64,000 nucleotides of DNA, from the NCBI GenBank assembly GCA_026387455.1, contig JAPLLR010000016.1, positions 6,358 to 70,357 on the forward strand, given 5' to 3'. Positions 3,162-60,209 of this stretch are shown piece after piece. Made by a program: the position numbers and the translations under genes. This DNA comes from Candidatus Omnitrophota bacterium. GTDB lineage: Bacteria; Omnitrophota; Gorgyraeia; Gygaellales; Profunditerraquicolaceae. The notes beneath the pieces were generated by a model. The model was not told the origin of the DNA and ran no database searches. It saw only the letters and a list, made by a program, of their open reading frames with translations. Numbering within the stretch: the stretch's first letter is position 1; each line of letters starts with the position of its first letter.

Positions 3162-4127
3162 TTACCATTTGAATCCTATCCCCGCTTTGACGGTTACGTC
3201 TTTGCCATCTTTTAGTGCCTGTAAAAAGATATCGCCGCAGCCGTTAAGGATAGATTTGTTAAGTTTCAGGTTTATTCCCAGTTCTTTGTGTAGGTTGTTT
3301 CTTAATTTTAATTCAAGATTTGTCCTGTTTGCAATCCTGCACTCTGCCCCAAAGACGATGCTGCGGATCTTTCCTTCTTCGTAAGGCATCTCAAATAAGA
3401 GTCCGAGTTTTTCGAATATTCTCCACGAGCCAAAGAGCAGAAGTTTTTTCTTCTCTGGCTTTAAACCTATTCCTAGTTCGTATTCCAGACCACGCTTTGC
3501 CGGCTTACCCAGACTCACCTGAAAATTGAATCCGGAGTCTAACTCTTTATTCAGGACATAGGATACGCGGTTTTTCTCGGTTATATCCCAGTAGCCTTTA
3601 AAGGTGATGCTGTGGGCAATTTTTTCCTTTCGCTTTAAGCCGGTCTTGGTATAGGTATAAATGATTTGATTTTGTTTGTTCACTTCCCAGGCGCCGACAA
3701 GGATAAGGGTGTCGTATAAGTCATTTTCTTTTGCTATTAGGAAGCTGAGCCGATTATAAGCATCAACCTGCCATTTTCCGCTAAGTTTTAGTATGCTCAG
3801 GTGTGTCCTGCCTGTGGAATCTTTGCTGGTTATACTGAAGGCTAGCTCATCAGCTCTTGCGTCGATGATCTCGCCGGCTAGGGTCAACTTGTCTGCGGAC
3901 GGATTATTTTCTCTATCCAGCGTAAGTGCTAGATTGTGCCCATTATCCAAAGACCACTTTCCTGAAAGTCTTAGCTGTTGTGGTACGCCTGAGGGCAGGG
4001 GCTGTTTGACGCGGTAGGTAAGGGCGTTAGTTCTATCGATATCAAACTCTCCATCCAGCGCTACGCGCATGATTTTGAGCCTGCCGGAGGGGTCGATACC
4101 GTATTCTACTGTTTCATTCTTTCGCAT
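3162..4127 (-). CDS. Hypothetical protein, beta-rich and repetitive, with no signal peptide.
   Basis: A 321-aa ORF convergent with the upstream gene. It has a repetitive K/G/L-rich beta-strand-like composition and no recognisable motif. Confidence 0.4.
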   Translation of the reverse strand: MRKNETVEYGIDPSGRLKIMRVALDGEFDIDRTNALTYRVKQPLPSGVPQQLRLSGKWSLDNGHNLALTLDRENNPSADKLTLAGEIIDARADELAFSITSKDSTGRTHLSILKLSGKWQVDAYNRLSFLIAKENDLYDTLILVGAWEVNKQNQIIYTYTKTGLKRKEKIAHSITFKGYWDITEKNRVSYVLNKELDSGFNFQVSLGKPAKRGLEYELGIGLKPEKKKLLLFGSWRIFEKLGLLFEMPYEEGKIRSIVFGAECRIANRTNLELKLRNNLHKELGINLKLNKSILNGCGDIFLQALKDGKDVTVKAGIGFKW

Positions 4128-15158: not shown

Positions 15159-15188
15159 GCTTGTGTGATATAATAGGCAAAAATTATA

Positions 15189-15286
15189 CACCTGGCCTAA
15201 TAGGAATGGCCAGTATTTCATCCTAGAAAGGATGCACCCAGCATACCTTTTAGCTGGGGTGCAACTTTCTATGAAAGGAAGTGAGT
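15189..15286 (+). repeat. Modular hairpin repeat (CACCTGGCC-TAATAGGAA-TGGCCAG; TCATCCTAGAAAGGATG; GCACCCAGC...GCTGGGGTGC) forming the 5' leader of the downstream gene.
   Basis: The same module order recurs at 20191-20288 and 34392-34662, and partial versions occur at 530-582 and 60156-60209. Confidence 0.6.
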
Positions 15287-16813
15287 ATGTTAAAGAAAAA
15301 CGGATTCGATAACGATAAGTACTTGAAAGAGCAGACCGTGGCGATCACAGACCGGGTGAAGAAGTTCGATAACAAGCTTTACTTAGAGTTCGGGGGTAAG
15401 CTTTGTTTTGACTATCACGCTGCTCGCGTTCTTCCGGGCTATGACCCTAATGTCAAGATCAGGCTGTTGCAGGAGCTAAAAAACAAGATAGATATAGTGC
15501 TTTGTATCTATGCCGGGGATATCGAGCGGGGCAGGGTGCGCGGAGATTTCGGGATCACATATGATTCTGCTACCTTGAAACTCATCGATGACCTGCGTAA
15601 GTGGGGCCTAGATATCCTTTCTGTTGTGATCACTCGCTTTGCCAATCAGCCCTCGGCGATTATCTTTAAGAATAAGCTTGAGCGCCGCGGGGTAAAAGTC
15701 AACCTGCATTACCCTATCGACGGCTATCCTGCGGATGTGAATAAGATCGCCAGCGAGAATGGATTCGGCAAGAACGAATACATTCAGACCAAGAATCCTA
15801 TTGTAGTGATCACCGCGCCCGGGCCTAATAGCGGAAAGCTTTCCACCTGCCTTTCTCAGCTTTACCATGACCATAAGAGGGGCGTTAATTCCGGCTACGC
15901 TAAGTTCGAGACATTTCCTATCTGGAATTTAGCGCTTAAGCATCCCGTAAACGTGGCTTATGAAGCGGCTACCGCGGATATCCAGGATTTTAATCTGGTC
16001 GACCCTTTTCATTTAAATAAATACAATAAAACCGCCATAAATTATAACCGCGATGTAGAAAGTTTCCCGATATTGAGACTGATCTTAAACCGGATCTTTG
16101 ATAAGAATGCTAACTTACCGATGTATAACTCACCTACGGATATGGGGGTCAACCGTGCGTGGTTTGGTATCGTTGACGATAAGGCGGTGCAGGACGCGGC
16201 AAAGCAGGAGCTTATCCGTAGGTATTTCCGCTATAATACCGAGTATATCCTGGGTATAGAGAAAAAAGAGACGGTGGATAGGGTAATGATGTTGATGGAG
16301 GAGATGGGGGTCAAGCCCACGGATCGGACCGTACTGGAAGTGGCGCGTAAATCAGCTGATGAGGCAGAGGTAAATGGTAAGGGTAATGAGGGGATCTACT
16401 GCGGCGCAGCCCTGCAGCTGAATGACGGACGCATTATTACCGGAAAAAATTCTAAATTTATGCATGCGGCTTCCGCGCTGATCCTGAATGCGGTAAAGCA
16501 GCTGGCCAATATTCCCGATGAGATACTTCTATTATCCCCGCATATCATCAGTCAGATCGCCAAGCTTAAAGAAGGAATCCTGGATGCCGACTCCGAGAGT
16601 CTTGATCTTGAGGAGTCCCTGATAGCTTTATCTATAAGCGCAACCACCAATCACACCGCGGAGCTGGCGATGAATAAACTGGTGGAACTCAGTGGCTGTG
16701 AGGTGCAAATGACCCAAATCCACACTCCCGGAGACGAGGTGGGGCTTAAGCGGCTGGGGGTGAACCTTACTACAGACGGAAAGTTCTCTTCACGCAATCT
16801 TTTTGTCGCCTGA
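15287..16813 (+). CDS. DUF1846 / UPF0371 family protein.
   Basis: The N-terminus (FDNDKYLKEQTVAITDRVKKFDNKLYLEFGGKLCFDYHAARVLPGYDPN) and the 510-aa length match UPF0371. Confidence 0.6.
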   Translation: MLKKNGFDNDKYLKEQTVAITDRVKKFDNKLYLEFGGKLCFDYHAARVLPGYDPNVKIRLLQELKNKIDIVLCIYAGDIERGRVRGDFGITYDSATLKLIDDLRKWGLDILSVVITRFANQPSAIIFKNKLERRGVKVNLHYPIDGYPADVNKIASENGFGKNEYIQTKNPIVVITAPGPNSGKLSTCLSQLYHDHKRGVNSGYAKFETFPIWNLALKHPVNVAYEAATADIQDFNLVDPFHLNKYNKTAINYNRDVESFPILRLILNRIFDKNANLPMYNSPTDMGVNRAWFGIVDDKAVQDAAKQELIRRYFRYNTEYILGIEKKETVDRVMMLMEEMGVKPTDRTVLEVARKSADEAEVNGKGNEGIYCGAALQLNDGRIITGKNSKFMHAASALILNAVKQLANIPDEILLLSPHIISQIAKLKEGILDADSESLDLEESLIALSISATTNHTAELAMNKLVELSGCEVQMTQIHTPGDEVGLKRLGVNLTTDGKFSSRNLFVA

Positions 16814-19204: not shown

Positions 19205-20205
19205 ATGCCCCAAGAAGCAGGTATCCAGGAAAGAGCTAGGAAGTATTCGCTAAAGAAATATTCTCTGGCTCTGTTGGATACCGTAGTTACGCTTGCCCTG
19301 CTTCTGATTTTTTTGGCTACAGGTTTATCCCGGGCTCTTACTGAGGGCCTGGGATTTATTTTTTCAAGCAGCTATTTCACTGTTCCTGTTTACCTGCTCG
19401 TTGTAATTCTTGCCTACTATTTGATCACTTTTCCACTTACTTTTTACCAATCCTATACTCTTGAGCACGAATTTTCTCTGTCCCGGCAAAGCGTAAAATC
19501 GGGGTATTCTGGATATTTTTCTCTATTGTCATGGCTAATCTTTTGCCTGTATTAATCATACCTTTATTTTTTAAATATAAGAAACTTGAGGATGAAACAC
19601 TGCGCCAGAGGATAATTGTTTTAGCGGGCAAGATGAAAGTAAGGGTTCTGGATGTTTTTGAGATAGACTTAAGCAAAAAGTCTTTAAAAGGCAATGCCGC
19701 TTTCGTGGGGGCGGGGAACACGCGAAGAGTGCTTTTGGCAGACACCTTAAAAGATAAATACACCTATGAGGAGATAGAGGTGATTCTGGCGCATGAGTTC
19801 GCGCACTACCGCTTGAAGCATTTATTGAAGCTAATATTGGTCAATTCCGCGGTGACTCTGGTAACTTTTTTTGTAATTTATGCCACCAGCAGTTCGGCGC
19901 TGTGGTTGTTTGGGTTGTCTTCGTATCTAGAGCTTGCGGCTTTACCATTACTCTTTTTTTATTTTGCGGTTTTTGGTGTAATTTTGCAGCCGTTTGGGGC
20001 TTTTATCAGCCGCTGTTTCGAGCGTAGTGCTGATAGGATGGCCATACAGGTGACCGGCCTGAAAGACGCCTTTATCTCGACCATGGATAAGTTGGGTGAT
20101 CAGAATCTTTCGGATCGTAATCCGCACCCGCTTATTAAATTTTACTTTTTCGACCATCCGCCCATAGATGAGCGGATCAAGATGGCAAAACACCTGGCCT
20201 TATAG
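19205..20205 (+). pseudogene. M48-family (Ste24/HtpX-like) zinc metalloprotease, disrupted by a frameshift near 19531-19555 and an apparent internal deletion of about 40 codons.
   Basis: ORF 19205-19555 carries the N-terminal LEHEFSLSRQ region. ORF 19531-20205, in another frame, carries PLFFKYKKLEDETLRQRI...ILAHEFAHYRLKH (HEXXH). The two transmembrane helices normally between them are missing. Confidence 0.55.
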
Positions 20206-20288
20206 GAAAGGCCAGTGTTCCGTCCTAAAAAGGACGCACCCAGCCTACTTATTAGCTGGGGTGTAGCTTTCTGCGTAAGGAGGTTAAG
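20191..20288 (+). repeat. Modular hairpin repeat (TTATAGGA-loop family) overlapping the stop codon of the M48 gene and forming the leader of the next gene.
   Basis: CACCTGGCC-TTATAGGAA-AGGCCAGTG, then TCCGTCCTAAAAAGGACG, then GCACCCAGC..GCTGGGGTG, then AGCTTTCTGCGTAAGGAGG. The TAG stop of the M48 CDS lies inside the TTATAGGA loop. Confidence 0.6.
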
Positions 20289-20696
20289 ATGAAAAGAATA
20301 GCTGGGTTTTTGTTTGTATTATTTTTTGTTGTGTCTTCTGGTTCATCAGTTTTCGCACAAGGGTTCAGGGGCATGAGTGATGTTGTCCCACCGCCATTTG
20401 TGATTTATCCTAGTGAGCGTGCTGACATAAGCGGCAAAGACGTGCTCACCCTTAAGTGGAAGACCCCGGGAAGTTTTGATATTGACCACGTGGAGTTTAA
20501 GCTGTATAAAGGATATATCACCGCGGATTCCAACTTGGTCTATAAAGAGGATGTTGATCCGGTTGAGTCTGAGGTGGATGTGAAGGCCGATCTTTTGCAA
20601 GATGGCCAGACTTACACCATGTATTTACGTTCGATATCACGCGAGGGCTACAAAAGTGACCGGGTGTTTAATTCTTTTCAGGTAATTAAGAAATAA
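20289..20696 (+). CDS. Small secreted hypothetical protein (signal peptide).
   Basis: The N-terminal hydrophobic stretch ends in AQG. A strong AAGGAGG RBS is present. No known motif. Confidence 0.5.
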   Translation: MKRIAGFLFVLFFVVSSGSSVFAQGFRGMSDVVPPPFVIYPSERADISGKDVLTLKWKTPGSFDIDHVEFKLYKGYITADSNLVYKEDVDPVESEVDVKADLLQDGQTYTMYLRSISREGYKSDRVFNSFQVIKK

Positions 20697-22718: not shown

Positions 22719-22807
22719 AGGGGAATCATAGCAGACTCGTTGCCTTGTTTCAACTAATATTTAACCGTGGGTGCCGAGGCTTGCTTTTCGCTAAATAATT
22801 ATATATG

Positions 22808-23160
22808 TTATTGTTTAGCGGGTCCTGCCTTGGCTTGTCCTGCGCGCGGCTTTTTGCCGTGCTCGGATCAAGCCAAGTCACCCGCTAAACCTACCATTTA
22901 TCAGCAAGCTTGTTGTTAGCGGCTGACTTGGACTGCACCTTGCTTTATCGGATAAGCAAGTGTGCTCTTCTGGGCTGATTTCGAGTGGTTCCTCGGACGC
23001 CCCGCTCAAAGCGACCCTCGTCACCCTTGACTGAAAGTTTCAGTTGGCGGGAGGCTTGGCTTGGTTTCGAGCAGGGCTAGAAATGAGCGCAGGTGCGGCA
23101 CAACGCTGGGCCGCACCAAGCGTCCCTGCGAGAAACAAGACAAGCCGACCAGCCATGAGT
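22808..23160. repeat. GC-rich highly structured element of about 350 bp, copy 1 (second copy at 52048-52455).
   Basis: Long nested inverted repeats (GTTTAGCGGGTCCTGCCTTGGCTTG ... CAAGCCAAGTCACCCGCTAAAC; GGTGCGGCACAACGCTGGGCCGCACC) and terminal inverted-repeat-like ends. Its GC content is far above the flanking DNA. Confidence 0.7.
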
Positions 23161-23223
23161 GATTGTAGTTTTGAATCAAAGATATCTCGACAAAGAGGAG
23201 CGAATGTGGTATAGTGCAACCTT

Positions 23224-26058: not shown

Positions 26059-26586
26059 ATGGCTGCTAATGTTGATCTGATCAAAGAGTTAAGGCATATG
26101 ACCATGGCAAGCGTGGCCCACTGCAAAAAAGCTCTTGAGGAGTCAAACGGAGACATCAAGAAAGCGGCGGAATACCTGCGTAAGAAAGGCCTGGAAATTG
26201 CTGCTAATAAGCAGGACCGCGCGGTGAAAGAAGGTCGCATTGAAGCCTATATCCACCATGGAAGCAAGATTGGCGTGCTTTTGGAGGTGAACTGCGAGTC
26301 GGATTTCGTGGCTCGCAACGAGGATTTCACCAGCTTCACCAAGGATGTGGCCATGCAGATAGCCGCATGCAGTCCCATTTATATTAAAAGAGAAGATATT
26401 CCGGCAGAGGTGTTGGAGCAGGAGAAGAACAAGGAAGATTTCTGCAAGAATCACTGTCTTCTGGAACAGGCGTTTATTAAAGATGCAAGTTTGAGTATTA
26501 AGGATTATCTGGGCACAATCATCGGAAAACTCGGCGAGAATATCGTAGTTCGCAGATTTATAAGGTATAAAGTCGGGGAGTTATGA
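26059..26586 (+). CDS. tsf: Elongation factor Ts (short form).
   Basis: [38 protein letters not shown] matches the UBA-like N-domain of EF-Ts. It sits in the rpsB-tsf-pyrH-frr order. Confidence 0.85.
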
Positions 26587-34391: not shown

Positions 34392-34662
34392 CACCTGGCC
34401 TTATAGCACCTTGGCATATAGGATTGTCAAGGTGCGTCCCTTCTGGGACGGATAAGCCAGCTGCACAAACAGTGCGCGTTCGCCCAACCTATTGGGCGAG
34501 GCGTGTTCCGTCCTAAAAAGGACGCACCCAGCATACCTTTTAGCTGGGGTGCAGCCTTCTGTTACACCCAACTTTAGCCCCTTCCTTAAAAGGTACAGGA
34601 AGAGCTACCCCTCTGGGGTTATAGGAAAAGTTGGTGTTGTGCTTACTGCACAAGGAGAGAAA
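34392..34662 (+). repeat. Roughly 270-bp compound array of hairpin repeat modules forming the entire metK-ahcY intergenic region and the ahcY leader.
   Basis: Contains at least eight stem-loops, including the CACCTGGCC-TTATAG, TCCGTCCTAAAAAGGACG, GCACCCAGC..GCTGGGGTGC and CCTTCCTTAAAAGGTACAGGAAG modules shared with other intergenic regions. Confidence 0.6.
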
Positions 34663-52047: not shown

Positions 52048-52455
52048 ATTATTGTTTAGCGGGTCCTGCCTTGGCTTGTCCTGCGCGCGGCTTATTGCCG
52101 TGCTCGGATCAAGCCAAGTCACCCGTTAAACCTATCAGCCATTATAAATTAGCAAGCTAATTTCTTCAGCTGGCGGGAGGCTTGGATTGATTTCGAGCGG
52201 GGTATTGGACGCCTCGCTCAAAGCGACCCTCGTCACCCTTGACTGAAAGCTTCAGTTGGCGGAAGGCTTGGCTTGGTTTCGAGCAGGGCATGGAAGCCCC
52301 GAGCGGGCAAGGTTGCCCCTCATTTCACATATAGGGCAGAGCGAGGGGCTGGAAATGAGCGCAGGTGCGGCACGCTGGGCCGCACCAAGCGTCCCTGCGA
52401 GAAACAAGACAAGACTACCGCCATGAGTCCGCGAGAAACAGGACAAGGCAGACGC
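52048..52455. repeat. GC-rich structured element of about 400 bp, copy 2 (copy 1 at 22808-23160). It carries an extra 55-bp insertion and a tandemly duplicated 3' end.
   Basis: The 5' 90 bp are near-identical to copy 1, with the same nested inverted repeats. The small ORFs predicted on it have no support. Confidence 0.7.
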
Positions 52456-52508
52456 TAAGTTTGCATGGCTTAGGGTGATATTTTAGCTAAATAAAAGTTG
52501 ATTTAGGC

Positions 52509-53465
52509 TTGATTTATGCTAAAATCAATCTTCCCATGATCAATATAAATAAGGTCAAAACATACTCGCTTAAGACGCGCCTGAGCAAGGTAAATTTTAA
52601 GGATTTTGCCAAGTCTCCGGCTAAGAAGAAGAGCTTTGTTTCTTTTTACGGCTCTTTGCCGAATATCTTAAAAGCCAAAGACTTACGTTGCGTTGTTGAG
52701 GCAATTGTCAGGGCCCATAAGTCCAAGAAAGCTGTGATTTATATGGCCGGCGCGCATGTGATCAAATGCGGCCTGAACCCGGTTTTAATAGAGCTCTTAA
52801 AGAAGAAAATTATCACCTGTATTTGCTTAAACGGCGCCGGTATAATTCATGATTTTGAGTTGGCTTTTCAGGGTAAGACTTCCGAGGATGTTGCGGAAAA
52901 TCTTAAAGACGGCAAATTCGGCATGGGTAAAGAGACCGCGGATTTTCTAAATGAAGCGGTGAGCGTTGGTGTTGTTCAAGGGTTTGGCCTTGGCCAGGCA
53001 GTGGGCAAAAAAATCAGCGATTCTAGGCTTCCTCACAAGAATTTAAGTTTGCTTTACAACGCTTATAGGTATAACGTCCCGGTCTGCGTGTTTGTGGCTA
53101 TTGGCACGGATATTATCCATCAGCATCCTTCTTTTGATGCTTCGATGACTGCCGAGGGGTCATTACGCGATTTTCATGTACTGGTTGAAAATATCTCAGG
53201 ACTGAATAACGGCGGCGTAGTTCTGAATTTCGGTTCGGCGGTGATTATGCCGGAAGTTTTTTTAAAGGCGCTTAATCTGGCGCGTAATCTGGGTAAATCC
53301 GTTAAGAATTTTACTACCGCAAATTTTGATATGATCTATCAATATCGCCCGGCGCAGAATGTGTGTCTGAGGCCGGTGCTTTCCGGGGGCATTAGTTATT
53401 ACATTATTGGCCATCACGAGATAAATTTACCGTTACTGGCGCAGGCTGTAATAGAAAAGATATGA
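52509..53465 (+). CDS. Deoxyhypusine synthase-like protein.
   Basis: Blocks HVIKCGLNPVLIELLKKKIITCICLNGAGIIHDFE and VPVCVFVAIGTDIIHQH parallel the DHS motifs SSGIRETIRYLV...VLVTTAGGVEEDL and IPVFSPALTDGSLGDMI. Confidence 0.55.
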   Translation: MIYAKINLPMININKVKTYSLKTRLSKVNFKDFAKSPAKKKSFVSFYGSLPNILKAKDLRCVVEAIVRAHKSKKAVIYMAGAHVIKCGLNPVLIELLKKKIITCICLNGAGIIHDFELAFQGKTSEDVAENLKDGKFGMGKETADFLNEAVSVGVVQGFGLGQAVGKKISDSRLPHKNLSLLYNAYRYNVPVCVFVAIGTDIIHQHPSFDASMTAEGSLRDFHVLVENISGLNNGGVVLNFGSAVIMPEVFLKALNLARNLGKSVKNFTTANFDMIYQYRPAQNVCLRPVLSGGISYYIIGHHEINLPLLAQAVIEKI

Positions 53466-60138: not shown

Positions 60139-60209
60139 AAAGAATTTTATCAAAGCACCTGGCCTTATAGGATAGGCCAGTGTTCCGCATTCTGCGGAAG
60201 GAGGGTATA

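Follow-up and report, generated by a model that had tools for sequence, protein, structure and literature searches.

Two GC-rich, palindromic sequences in separate intergenic spacers of a contig from a Candidatus Omnitrophica (Omnitrophota) metagenome-assembled genome raise the question of whether they represent a structured noncoding RNA or a small mobile element. The stretch of DNA that was analysed (64 kb, referred to here as the window) had been given a preliminary description in which the pair appeared as diverged copies of a single structured RNA or element of 350–400 nt, with a MITE, a HEARO/IS200-IS605 remnant and a novel large ncRNA as candidates. Here, we establish the existence of an uncatalogued, modular family of GC-rich, palindromic intergenic repeats in Omnitrophota, to which both copies belong according to alignment and a covariance model (R1), and we consider which explanation best accounts for it.

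The two elements (22764–23162, copy 1; 52050–52459, copy 2) align with one another over their full length, with large indels. The near-identical 5′ sequence, put at about 90 bp beforehand, comprises 98 nt with 94% identity, a 107-nt block shares 90% and two 3′ blocks share 96%. Their GC contents (56.1 and 56.6% for copies 1 and 2, respectively) are the maxima of the window (mean 46.3%, s.d. 3.4%, 350-nt windows), so that the compositional contrast seen earlier is real, if mildly overstated as ‘far higher’. Both fold much better than shuffled sequence, on the plus strand (z = −8.1 and −5.8) as well as on the minus strand (z = −6.7 and −5.3). A degenerate 24-nt motif from the shared part, GGCTTGGMTTGRTTTCGAGCRGGG, occurs three times in the window (0 of 100 shuffles, 0 expected), and a full-sensitivity scan with R1 found no third copy in the 64 kb. 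The neighbours of copy 1 are a Gfo/Idh/MocA gene on the minus strand, which lpxB follows, and, on the plus strand, a gene for an msbA-like ABC transporter; copy 2 is bordered by a SET-domain gene and one resembling deoxyhypusine synthase (DHS-like gene). Both are promoter-containing spacers, as had been proposed; each of the three promoter-like sites assigned to flanking genes falls between its gene and the element, immediately beyond the latter (Table 1). Copy 1 thus sits between two divergent promoters and outside both transcription units. Within the window copies no promoter passed the scan and no terminator-like site was detected.

The open reading frames crossing the units matched no Pfam family and the reading frame is broken between variants by indels that are not multiples of three; therefore, the elements are not protein-coding. 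At other loci a noncoding extension of ~270 nt with hairpins lies 5′ of the core, and an HTH-like small protein considered on its opposite strand was rejected: the frame is shifted and carries stops in L024 (related loci are denoted by L numbers), and the ‘conserved peptide’ arises from the conserved hairpins. In the window, only tRNAs passed the Rfam gathering scores, and 6S RNA, RNase P, tmRNA and SRP RNA were not matched, in agreement with the earlier motif inspection. Permissive searches gave no match at E ≤ 10 for the window copies or at E ≤ 1 for seven other loci; the top sub-threshold match was sok, whose 22 bits fall short of the cut-off of 59 and which is accompanied by no toxin ORF. 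Plasmid and phage collections gave no match in distant blastn searches, viral contigs gave nothing beyond chance matches in phage tail-fibre genes, and genome contigs scanned with GCGACCCTCGTCACCCTTGAC yielded only two chance matches in actinobacterial coding DNA. A search of the literature on repeats, MITEs and structured or noncoding RNAs of Omnitrophota/Omnitrophica returned nothing relevant; the family was thus found neither in Rfam 15 nor in the literature searched.

One metagenome scan with a degenerate arm motif supplied 16 further loci, and 19 units from 17 sources now score 105–200 bits with R1. The copies are neither gene fragments nor the product of a purely local duplication, the two outcomes that would have spoken against the initial proposal. 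The unit is ~176 nt in length, or ~195 nt when the conserved flanks CUUCA…UGAGG, which prolong helix P1 and include a U·G pair, are counted. The arms at its 5′ end (UGGCGGG-AGGCUUGGCUUGRUUUCGAGCRGGGC) and its 3′ end (GYCCCYGCGAGAAACAAGACAAGCC-N-CCCGCCA) pair to form the closing helix, which is long and imperfect, has mismatches that are conserved and contains an invariant tandem G·A/A·G (GAGC/GCGA); the arms are the part of the unit with the highest sequence conservation. The closing helix encloses a three-way junction, an invariant asymmetric internal loop (GAGCGGGCAUGG/AGCGA) and two variable hairpins. Within the arms, a short helix (columns 36–37 with 105–106 of alignment A8) is followed by P2 and then by the invariant loop. 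P3 is a hairpin of variable loop, which is a cUUCGg tetraloop in L008 and L025. P4 carries a mostly conserved loop, ACGCUGG, on five stem versions in alignment A6 (GGUGCGGC/GCCGCACC, GUUUUGCC/GGCAAAAC, GCCCCGCC/GGCGGGGC, GCCCAGCC/GGCUGGGC and UCCGCCA/UGGCGGA). A GAGCG motif recurs five-fold among the invariant unpaired sequences.

The arms, P3 and P4 were predicted by RNAalifold, P2 and the 36–37/105–106 helix were added by inspection, and pairing statistics were computed on A8, a 19-sequence alignment fitted to the model. Standard pairs occupy 95.3% of the pair cells, compared with 32–48% in controls slid by 1–3 columns; both sides have changed in 24 of 47 pairs (slid controls 4–8) and the covariation score is 0.303 (slid controls 0.05–0.09). 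In four of five measures the observed values were reached by none of 500 shuffles, and in the remaining one, further pair types, by two of 500. The fitting of A8 to the model is a caveat on these values; the compensatory changes are, however, also visible in the independent MAFFT alignment A6. They occur in every helix, and the hairpin stems vary by compensatory substitution only. The covariation check proposed at the outset thus demonstrates a conserved fold. As regards the strand, the solid helices contain five G·U against no A·C pairs on the unit's own strand, which is only suggestive, and the overall balance of 18 to 19 is dominated by two doubtful pairs; read by eye, the wobble pairs of the 5′-extension hairpin indicate both strands.

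Table 1. Features of the two window copies, nearby promoter-like sites, copies of a second repeat family and variation of the Gfo/msbA spacer among related loci.
Feature	Position or length	Strand	Details
Remnant 3′ arm of minus-oriented variant unit, TTTAACCGTGGGTGCCGAGGCTTGCTTTTCGC	22764–22795	minus	True left edge of copy 1
Arms-only mini unit, copy 1	22809–22889	minus	R1 36.6 bits, E 4e-07; plus strand 20.7 bits
D1-type hairpin of a different small repeat family, loop TTATCGGAT	22931–22967		In copy 1 spacer; direct-repeat family D1
5′ arm of minus-oriented variant unit, reverse complement of GTCAAGGGTGACGAGG.TCGCTTTGAGCGGGGCGTCCGAGG	22987–23032	minus	
Core unit of copy 1, 62-nt internal deletion	23043–23162	plus	R1 105 bits, E ~1e-22; alignments A6 and A8
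Arms-only mini unit, copy 2	52050–52130	minus	R1 30.6 bits; inverted repeats I1 and I3
Partial unit, copy 2: extra 5′ arm (M1) head-to-head with inverted variant 5′ arm (52207–52244)	52169–52251	plus	R1 24.9 bits, E 2e-04; motif match 52179–52202
Full core of copy 2 (closing helix P1, three-way junction, P2, invariant loop, P3, P4)	52255–52430	plus	R1 195.5 bits, E 1e-44
Extra 3′ arm module, copy 2, CGCGAGAAACAGGACAAGGCAGACGCTAAG	52430–52459	plus	Closes entire composite against 52055–52079
Promoter-like site, Gfo–lpxB operon	22753–22725	minus	
Promoter-like site, msbA	23187–23215		
Promoter-like site, DHS-like gene	52498–52525		
Second repeat family, window copies	525–561, 15184–15289, 20186–20291, 34503–34641, 60151–60187		
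Gfo/msbA spacer, window	505 bp		Element in plus orientation
Gfo/msbA spacer, L008	569 bp		MsbA 98%; element in plus orientation
Gfo/msbA spacer, L003	500 bp		MsbA 98%; element region inverted
Gfo/msbA spacer, L004 and L009	57 bp		MsbA 95%; empty
Gfo/msbA spacer, L005	223 bp		MsbA 91%; hairpin repeats, unrelated
Gfo/msbA spacer, L010–L013	308 bp		MsbA 88%; core only
Gfo/msbA spacer, L015	146 bp		MsbA 87%; none

Seen against this unit, each window copy is a mosaic cluster of units of 80–195 nt in alternating orientation and not a single RNA of 350–400 nt. Copy 1 begins some way to the left of its first assigned boundary (22808), with a remnant 3′ arm that also occurs in L008 and matches the 3′ arm of the L003(+) unit, taken in reverse complement, at 97% identity (L003rc 78–109 aligns with window 22760–22791). 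The corresponding 5′ arm (93% identity to L003rc 204–295) is that of the L003 9742–9915(+) unit in A8, which is the intact counterpart of the arms now separated in copy 1. The 5′ hairpin of 85 nt noted previously is real (arms of 25 nt, 76% complementary); it is an arms-only unit on the opposite strand. The core of copy 1 retains the closing helix and the P4 hairpin and has lost P2, P3 and the invariant internal loop. This domain is present in all 18 other units, the orthologous L008 unit included; therefore, copy 1 carries a deletion, and the ‘55-bp insertion’ previously assigned to copy 2 is the ancestral state. In copy 2 the left arm of the mini unit also pairs with the far 3′ module, and the imperfect inverted repeat described for the ends was recovered (52066–52079 with 52438–52451, 14 nt, 86% complementary). 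The tandem duplication previously seen at the 3′ end is in fact an additional arm module that recurs elsewhere: homologous modules follow the core in L021, L024, L026 and L033.

The hairpin in the spacer of copy 1 belongs to a second, unrelated repeat family of ~100 nt that forms three consecutive hairpins (CACCTGGCCTTATAGGAAAGGCCAGTG, GTCCTAAAAAGGAC and CACCCAGC…GCTGGGGTG), occurs at gene ends in copies of 81–95% identity and has no Rfam match. A single hairpin of this family is present in copy 1, and another constitutes a 45-nt insertion in the comparison of L028 with L018.

Across the loci, the units of the first family occur in full, internally deleted, arms-only and nested forms, with mosaic linkers within clusters, and the composites measure 350–545 nt. 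Neighbouring units alternate in orientation in the window, L003, L008, L021 and L029: mini(−)/core(+) pairs are seen in both window copies, L008, L021 and L029, while L003 is core(−)/core(+), with two full units head-to-head and their 5′ ends 11 nt apart. The unit arms are imperfect inverted repeats of ~30 nt, and the composite of L026 (543 nt) has terminal inverted repeats of 27 nt that are 96% complementary. The outer ends read TTTAGC…GCTAAA; divided as TTTA|GC…GC|TAAA they fit a TA duplication, for which the exact junction is unreadable as the empty sites L004 and L009 differ beyond the element. Units occupy at least ten gene contexts, in both orientations and always in intergenic DNA, beside housekeeping genes that include queA, tgt, an ECF sigma factor, bacA and panE and, by eye, murJ-like and uvrC-like genes. 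A variant with the same 5′ arm and a different interior (L016 1591–1750, L020 6550–6709 and L027 305–470; weak model matches of 16–22 bits) lies immediately 5′ of a DUF5674 start codon, where it occupies a 5′-UTR position.

Comparison of close strains shows that they differ by gain, loss, inversion and variant replacement of the element. MsbA homologues from sources assigned to Candidatus Omnitrophica/Omnitrophota form an identity series of 100, 98, 95, 91, 88, 87 and ~75%, along which the Gfo/msbA spacer changes repeatedly (Table 1); an exact look-up of the window's own MsbA protein gave no record. The element region of L003, once reverse-complemented, runs colinear with the window element, while its flanks are in direct orientation. 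At the SET/DHS-like site, L032 (from the same sample as L004; DHS-like protein 94%) has no recognizable unit and a GC-rich hairpin of ~75 nt, and L035–L038 (DHS-like protein 83%) have no unit. The strain of SRR26784438 lacks a unit at both sites. L033 and L034 encode identical DHS-like proteins and carry different element variants, with unrelated DNA further upstream, and downstream of queA the element has opposite orientations in L018/L019 and L030. Gain, loss and inversion between such close strains suggest, on sequence comparison, that the family behaves like small mobile repeats and not like a housekeeping RNA gene.

Other repeats occupy the same spacers: unrelated GGGACACCC/GGGTGTCCC hairpins are found at the Gfo/msbA site of L005 (9777–10001), and GGGTTGTGGGT repeats, rich in G and T, occur together with a C-rich stretch complementary to them at the SET/DHS-like site of L035–L038 (L035 5790–6001). 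Both spacers seem to be hot spots of repeat insertion. L024 and L031 share the same element and downstream genes and differ in their upstream genes; sigma/anti-sigma genes are present in L030 and not in L018, and the gene order switches exactly at the element. The repeats appear to mark synteny breakpoints in the pairs L024/L031, L033/L034 and L018/L030. Two further observations were made in these comparisons. Fragments of lpxB and of an M48 peptidase gene are duplicated locally beside the intact genes in one strain (L009 5385–7482), and the EF-Ts gene of the window (26059–26586) is short, encoding 175 amino acids, a length kept in all of the relatives fetched.

No gene for a transposase, reverse transcriptase, IscB, TnpB or Y1 transposase adjoins any of the ~22 loci, so the association with a TnpB/IscB or transposase ORF that had been envisaged was not borne out. 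The search spanned ~3.5 kb around the 16 metagenome units and up to 10 kb at the syntenic loci. The sole Y1_Tnp (IS200/RAYT-like) gene seen is inserted after lpxB in L031 (3026–3679, minus strand); it has its own REP hairpin, CCTTCCGCAATGCGGGTTTGCGGAAGG, in two copies just upstream of its start (3697–3813), and a tblastn search of the window with its protein found nothing. As this gene is flanked by its own unrelated REPs, it was rejected as the mobilizer of the family. A duplicated C-terminal fragment of lpxB follows the Y1_Tnp gene and its REPs.

The explanation that we favour, and to which we give an even chance, is a nonautonomous structured repeat with a fold that an unlinked enzyme would recognize and with dispersed inverted arms that would foster inversion and rearrangement. 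Such a repeat, selfish or recombinogenic, would be of the same kind as REP/BIME, ERIC, Correia or MITE elements. The folded single strand, either a transcript or ssDNA, would be recognized by a putative enzyme encoded elsewhere, and any effect on the neighbours (the lpxB operon and msbA, or the DHS-like gene) would be incidental. Polymorphism between strains with 94–98% identity of the flanking proteins, inversion at two loci and the presence in at least ten contexts are typical of such repeats, as are the arms-only, deleted and nested forms, the alternating units, the long inverted repeats and the conserved arms. Against this reading, no transposase, RAYT or other mobilizing gene is linked to the element, there are only two sites in 64 kb and no clean pair of filled and empty sites delimits the termini or a target-site duplication.

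The invariant loop and covarying helices, the UUCG tetraloops and the excess of G·U over A·C pairs in the solid helices are also more typical of a selected RNA than of a simple MITE, and they lend themselves to a different interpretation, in which the unit is a new class of trans-acting structured ncRNA of ~190 nt with a three-way junction, of which each genome would encode several copies. Pseudogenes would then account for the arms-only and deleted forms, and rapid turnover of a dispensable RNA gene for the variability among strains. The strong covariation of every helix, the invariant unpaired sequences (the loop, the five-fold GAGCG and the P4 loop) and the conserved flanks that lengthen P1 agree with this, as do possible extended −10 boxes (TGCTAAAAT, TACAAT) seen by eye ~45–60 nt 5′ of the core at several loci. 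The units, however, occur in both orientations relative to neighbouring genes, the head-to-head arrangement of L003 leaves no space for separate promoters, no terminator-like site was found in the scan and, unusually for an ncRNA, sequence conservation is highest in the closing helix. Copy 1, moreover, lacks the invariant loop despite the closeness of its strain to L008, and one strain has no unit at either site. We regard an ncRNA gene as the main rival, a real possibility if an unlikely one. The ncRNA candidate of the preliminary description, like the MITE, is partly sustained. The three-way junction, the invariant loop and the tandem G·A helix leave room for a further RNA-based reading, in which the ~190-nt unit is a new class of functional RNA within a mobility or recombination system that employs an unlinked enzyme. 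Such a guide-type, bridge-type or retro-mobile RNA might drive insertions, inversions and variant swaps between near-identical Omnitrophota strains, with target sites that would include the divergent lpxB operon/msbA promoter region; we consider this doubtful.

The position of copy 1 between divergent promoters, and the inverted 3′ arms flanking it, would suit an invertible segment acting as a phase-variation switch, with a flip altering expression of the envelope genes. The element region is indeed inverted between the window or L008 and L003 with colinear flanks, a difference between strains and not within one population; both orientations recur at a second locus, downstream of queA, and the outer ends are inverted repeats. 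Yet no internal promoter passes the scan, the flanking genes have their own promoters outside the element, no recombinase gene is nearby and many copies lie in unrelated, nondivergent contexts. Large indels also separate the inverted forms, which are therefore more than simple flips, and a switch appears very unlikely. We give still less weight to an orphan omega-RNA/HEARO or another IS200/IS605-IscB/TnpB-derived (PATE-like) remnant, which the family resembles only in a general way, in being multi-copy, structured, GC-rich and intergenic with ORF-less copies. The permissive Rfam searches gave no HEARO or IS605-orfB match, no IscB, TnpB or TnpA gene was found around the 16 metagenome units or at the syntenic loci, and no variable guide-like end is present. 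The ends of IS200/IS605 elements are without inverted-repeat arms, unlike the family, which has them terminally. This candidate of the earlier account finds no support. Least credible of all is a role in cis, as a leader or riboswitch that regulates the genes downstream (msbA and the DHS-like gene). A unit does lie 60–120 nt 5′ of a co-oriented gene at seven independent sites, and the variant of L016 and L027 abuts the DUF5674 start codon; however, the predicted promoters intervene between element and gene for msbA, the Gfo–lpxB operon and the DHS-like gene, at four sites the unit converges on the next gene or runs antisense inside an operon, the genes downstream have unrelated functions and the element is missing in close relatives.

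Omnitrophota are uncultivated, and the family provides a well supported conserved structure, with 24 covarying pairs, as well as a marker of strain-level genome rearrangement in this phylum. It also offers a test case for whether RNA or ssDNA is the target when intergenic repeats are selected for structure. Should the family have an enzyme partner, the invariant loop and the tandem G·A helix are its likely recognition sites.

Among known systems, HEARO/IscB omega-RNA (RF02033) is likewise GC-rich, multi-copy, structured and a few hundred nucleotides in length, with many ORF-less copies; the present family, in contrast, has no covariance-model match, no IscB gene and no guide segment, and possesses inverted-repeat arms. 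MITEs, for example those of the IS630/Tc1 type with a TA duplication, share the small size, noncoding nature and terminal inverted repeats (as in L026), and like the family they include nested copies, arms-only derivatives produced by deletion and sites that are polymorphic for insertion. However, no autonomous element sharing these ends was seen beside the units, and the target duplication is only a candidate here; simple MITEs also show neither the RNA-like covariation nor the invariant loops that characterize the interior of the unit. ERIC/IRU of enterobacteria and the Correia elements (CREE) of Neisseria are imperfect palindromes of 100–200 bp that are intergenic in both orientations, form size variants by internal indels, show conservation suggesting a folded transcript and owe their mobility to a source that is unclear or acts in trans, all of which is shared. 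They belong to a different phylum and have no sequence similarity to the family. Correia elements carry 26-bp terminal inverted repeats and are bounded by a defined TA duplication; here the duplication is only suggested by TTTAGC…GCTAAA. ERIC elements lie in transcribed regions, whereas copy 1 lies between divergent promoters. The REP/BIME and REPIN systems, which are mobilized by RAYT, a Y1 HUH transposase, have in common with the family extragenic palindromic units, alternating clusters with mosaic linkers, hairpins maintained by compensatory change, presence or absence between strains and a mobilizing enzyme, if there is one, encoded away from most copies. Units of the family were not seen to flank a RAYT gene, the RAYT-like gene of L031 having different REPs, and a REP unit is a single hairpin of 20–40 nt, compared with 80–195 nt, a three-way junction and an invariant internal loop here. 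The family is thus best filed among the structured palindromic intergenic repeats, a kind in which its three-way junction, invariant loop and tandem G·A helix are unusual.
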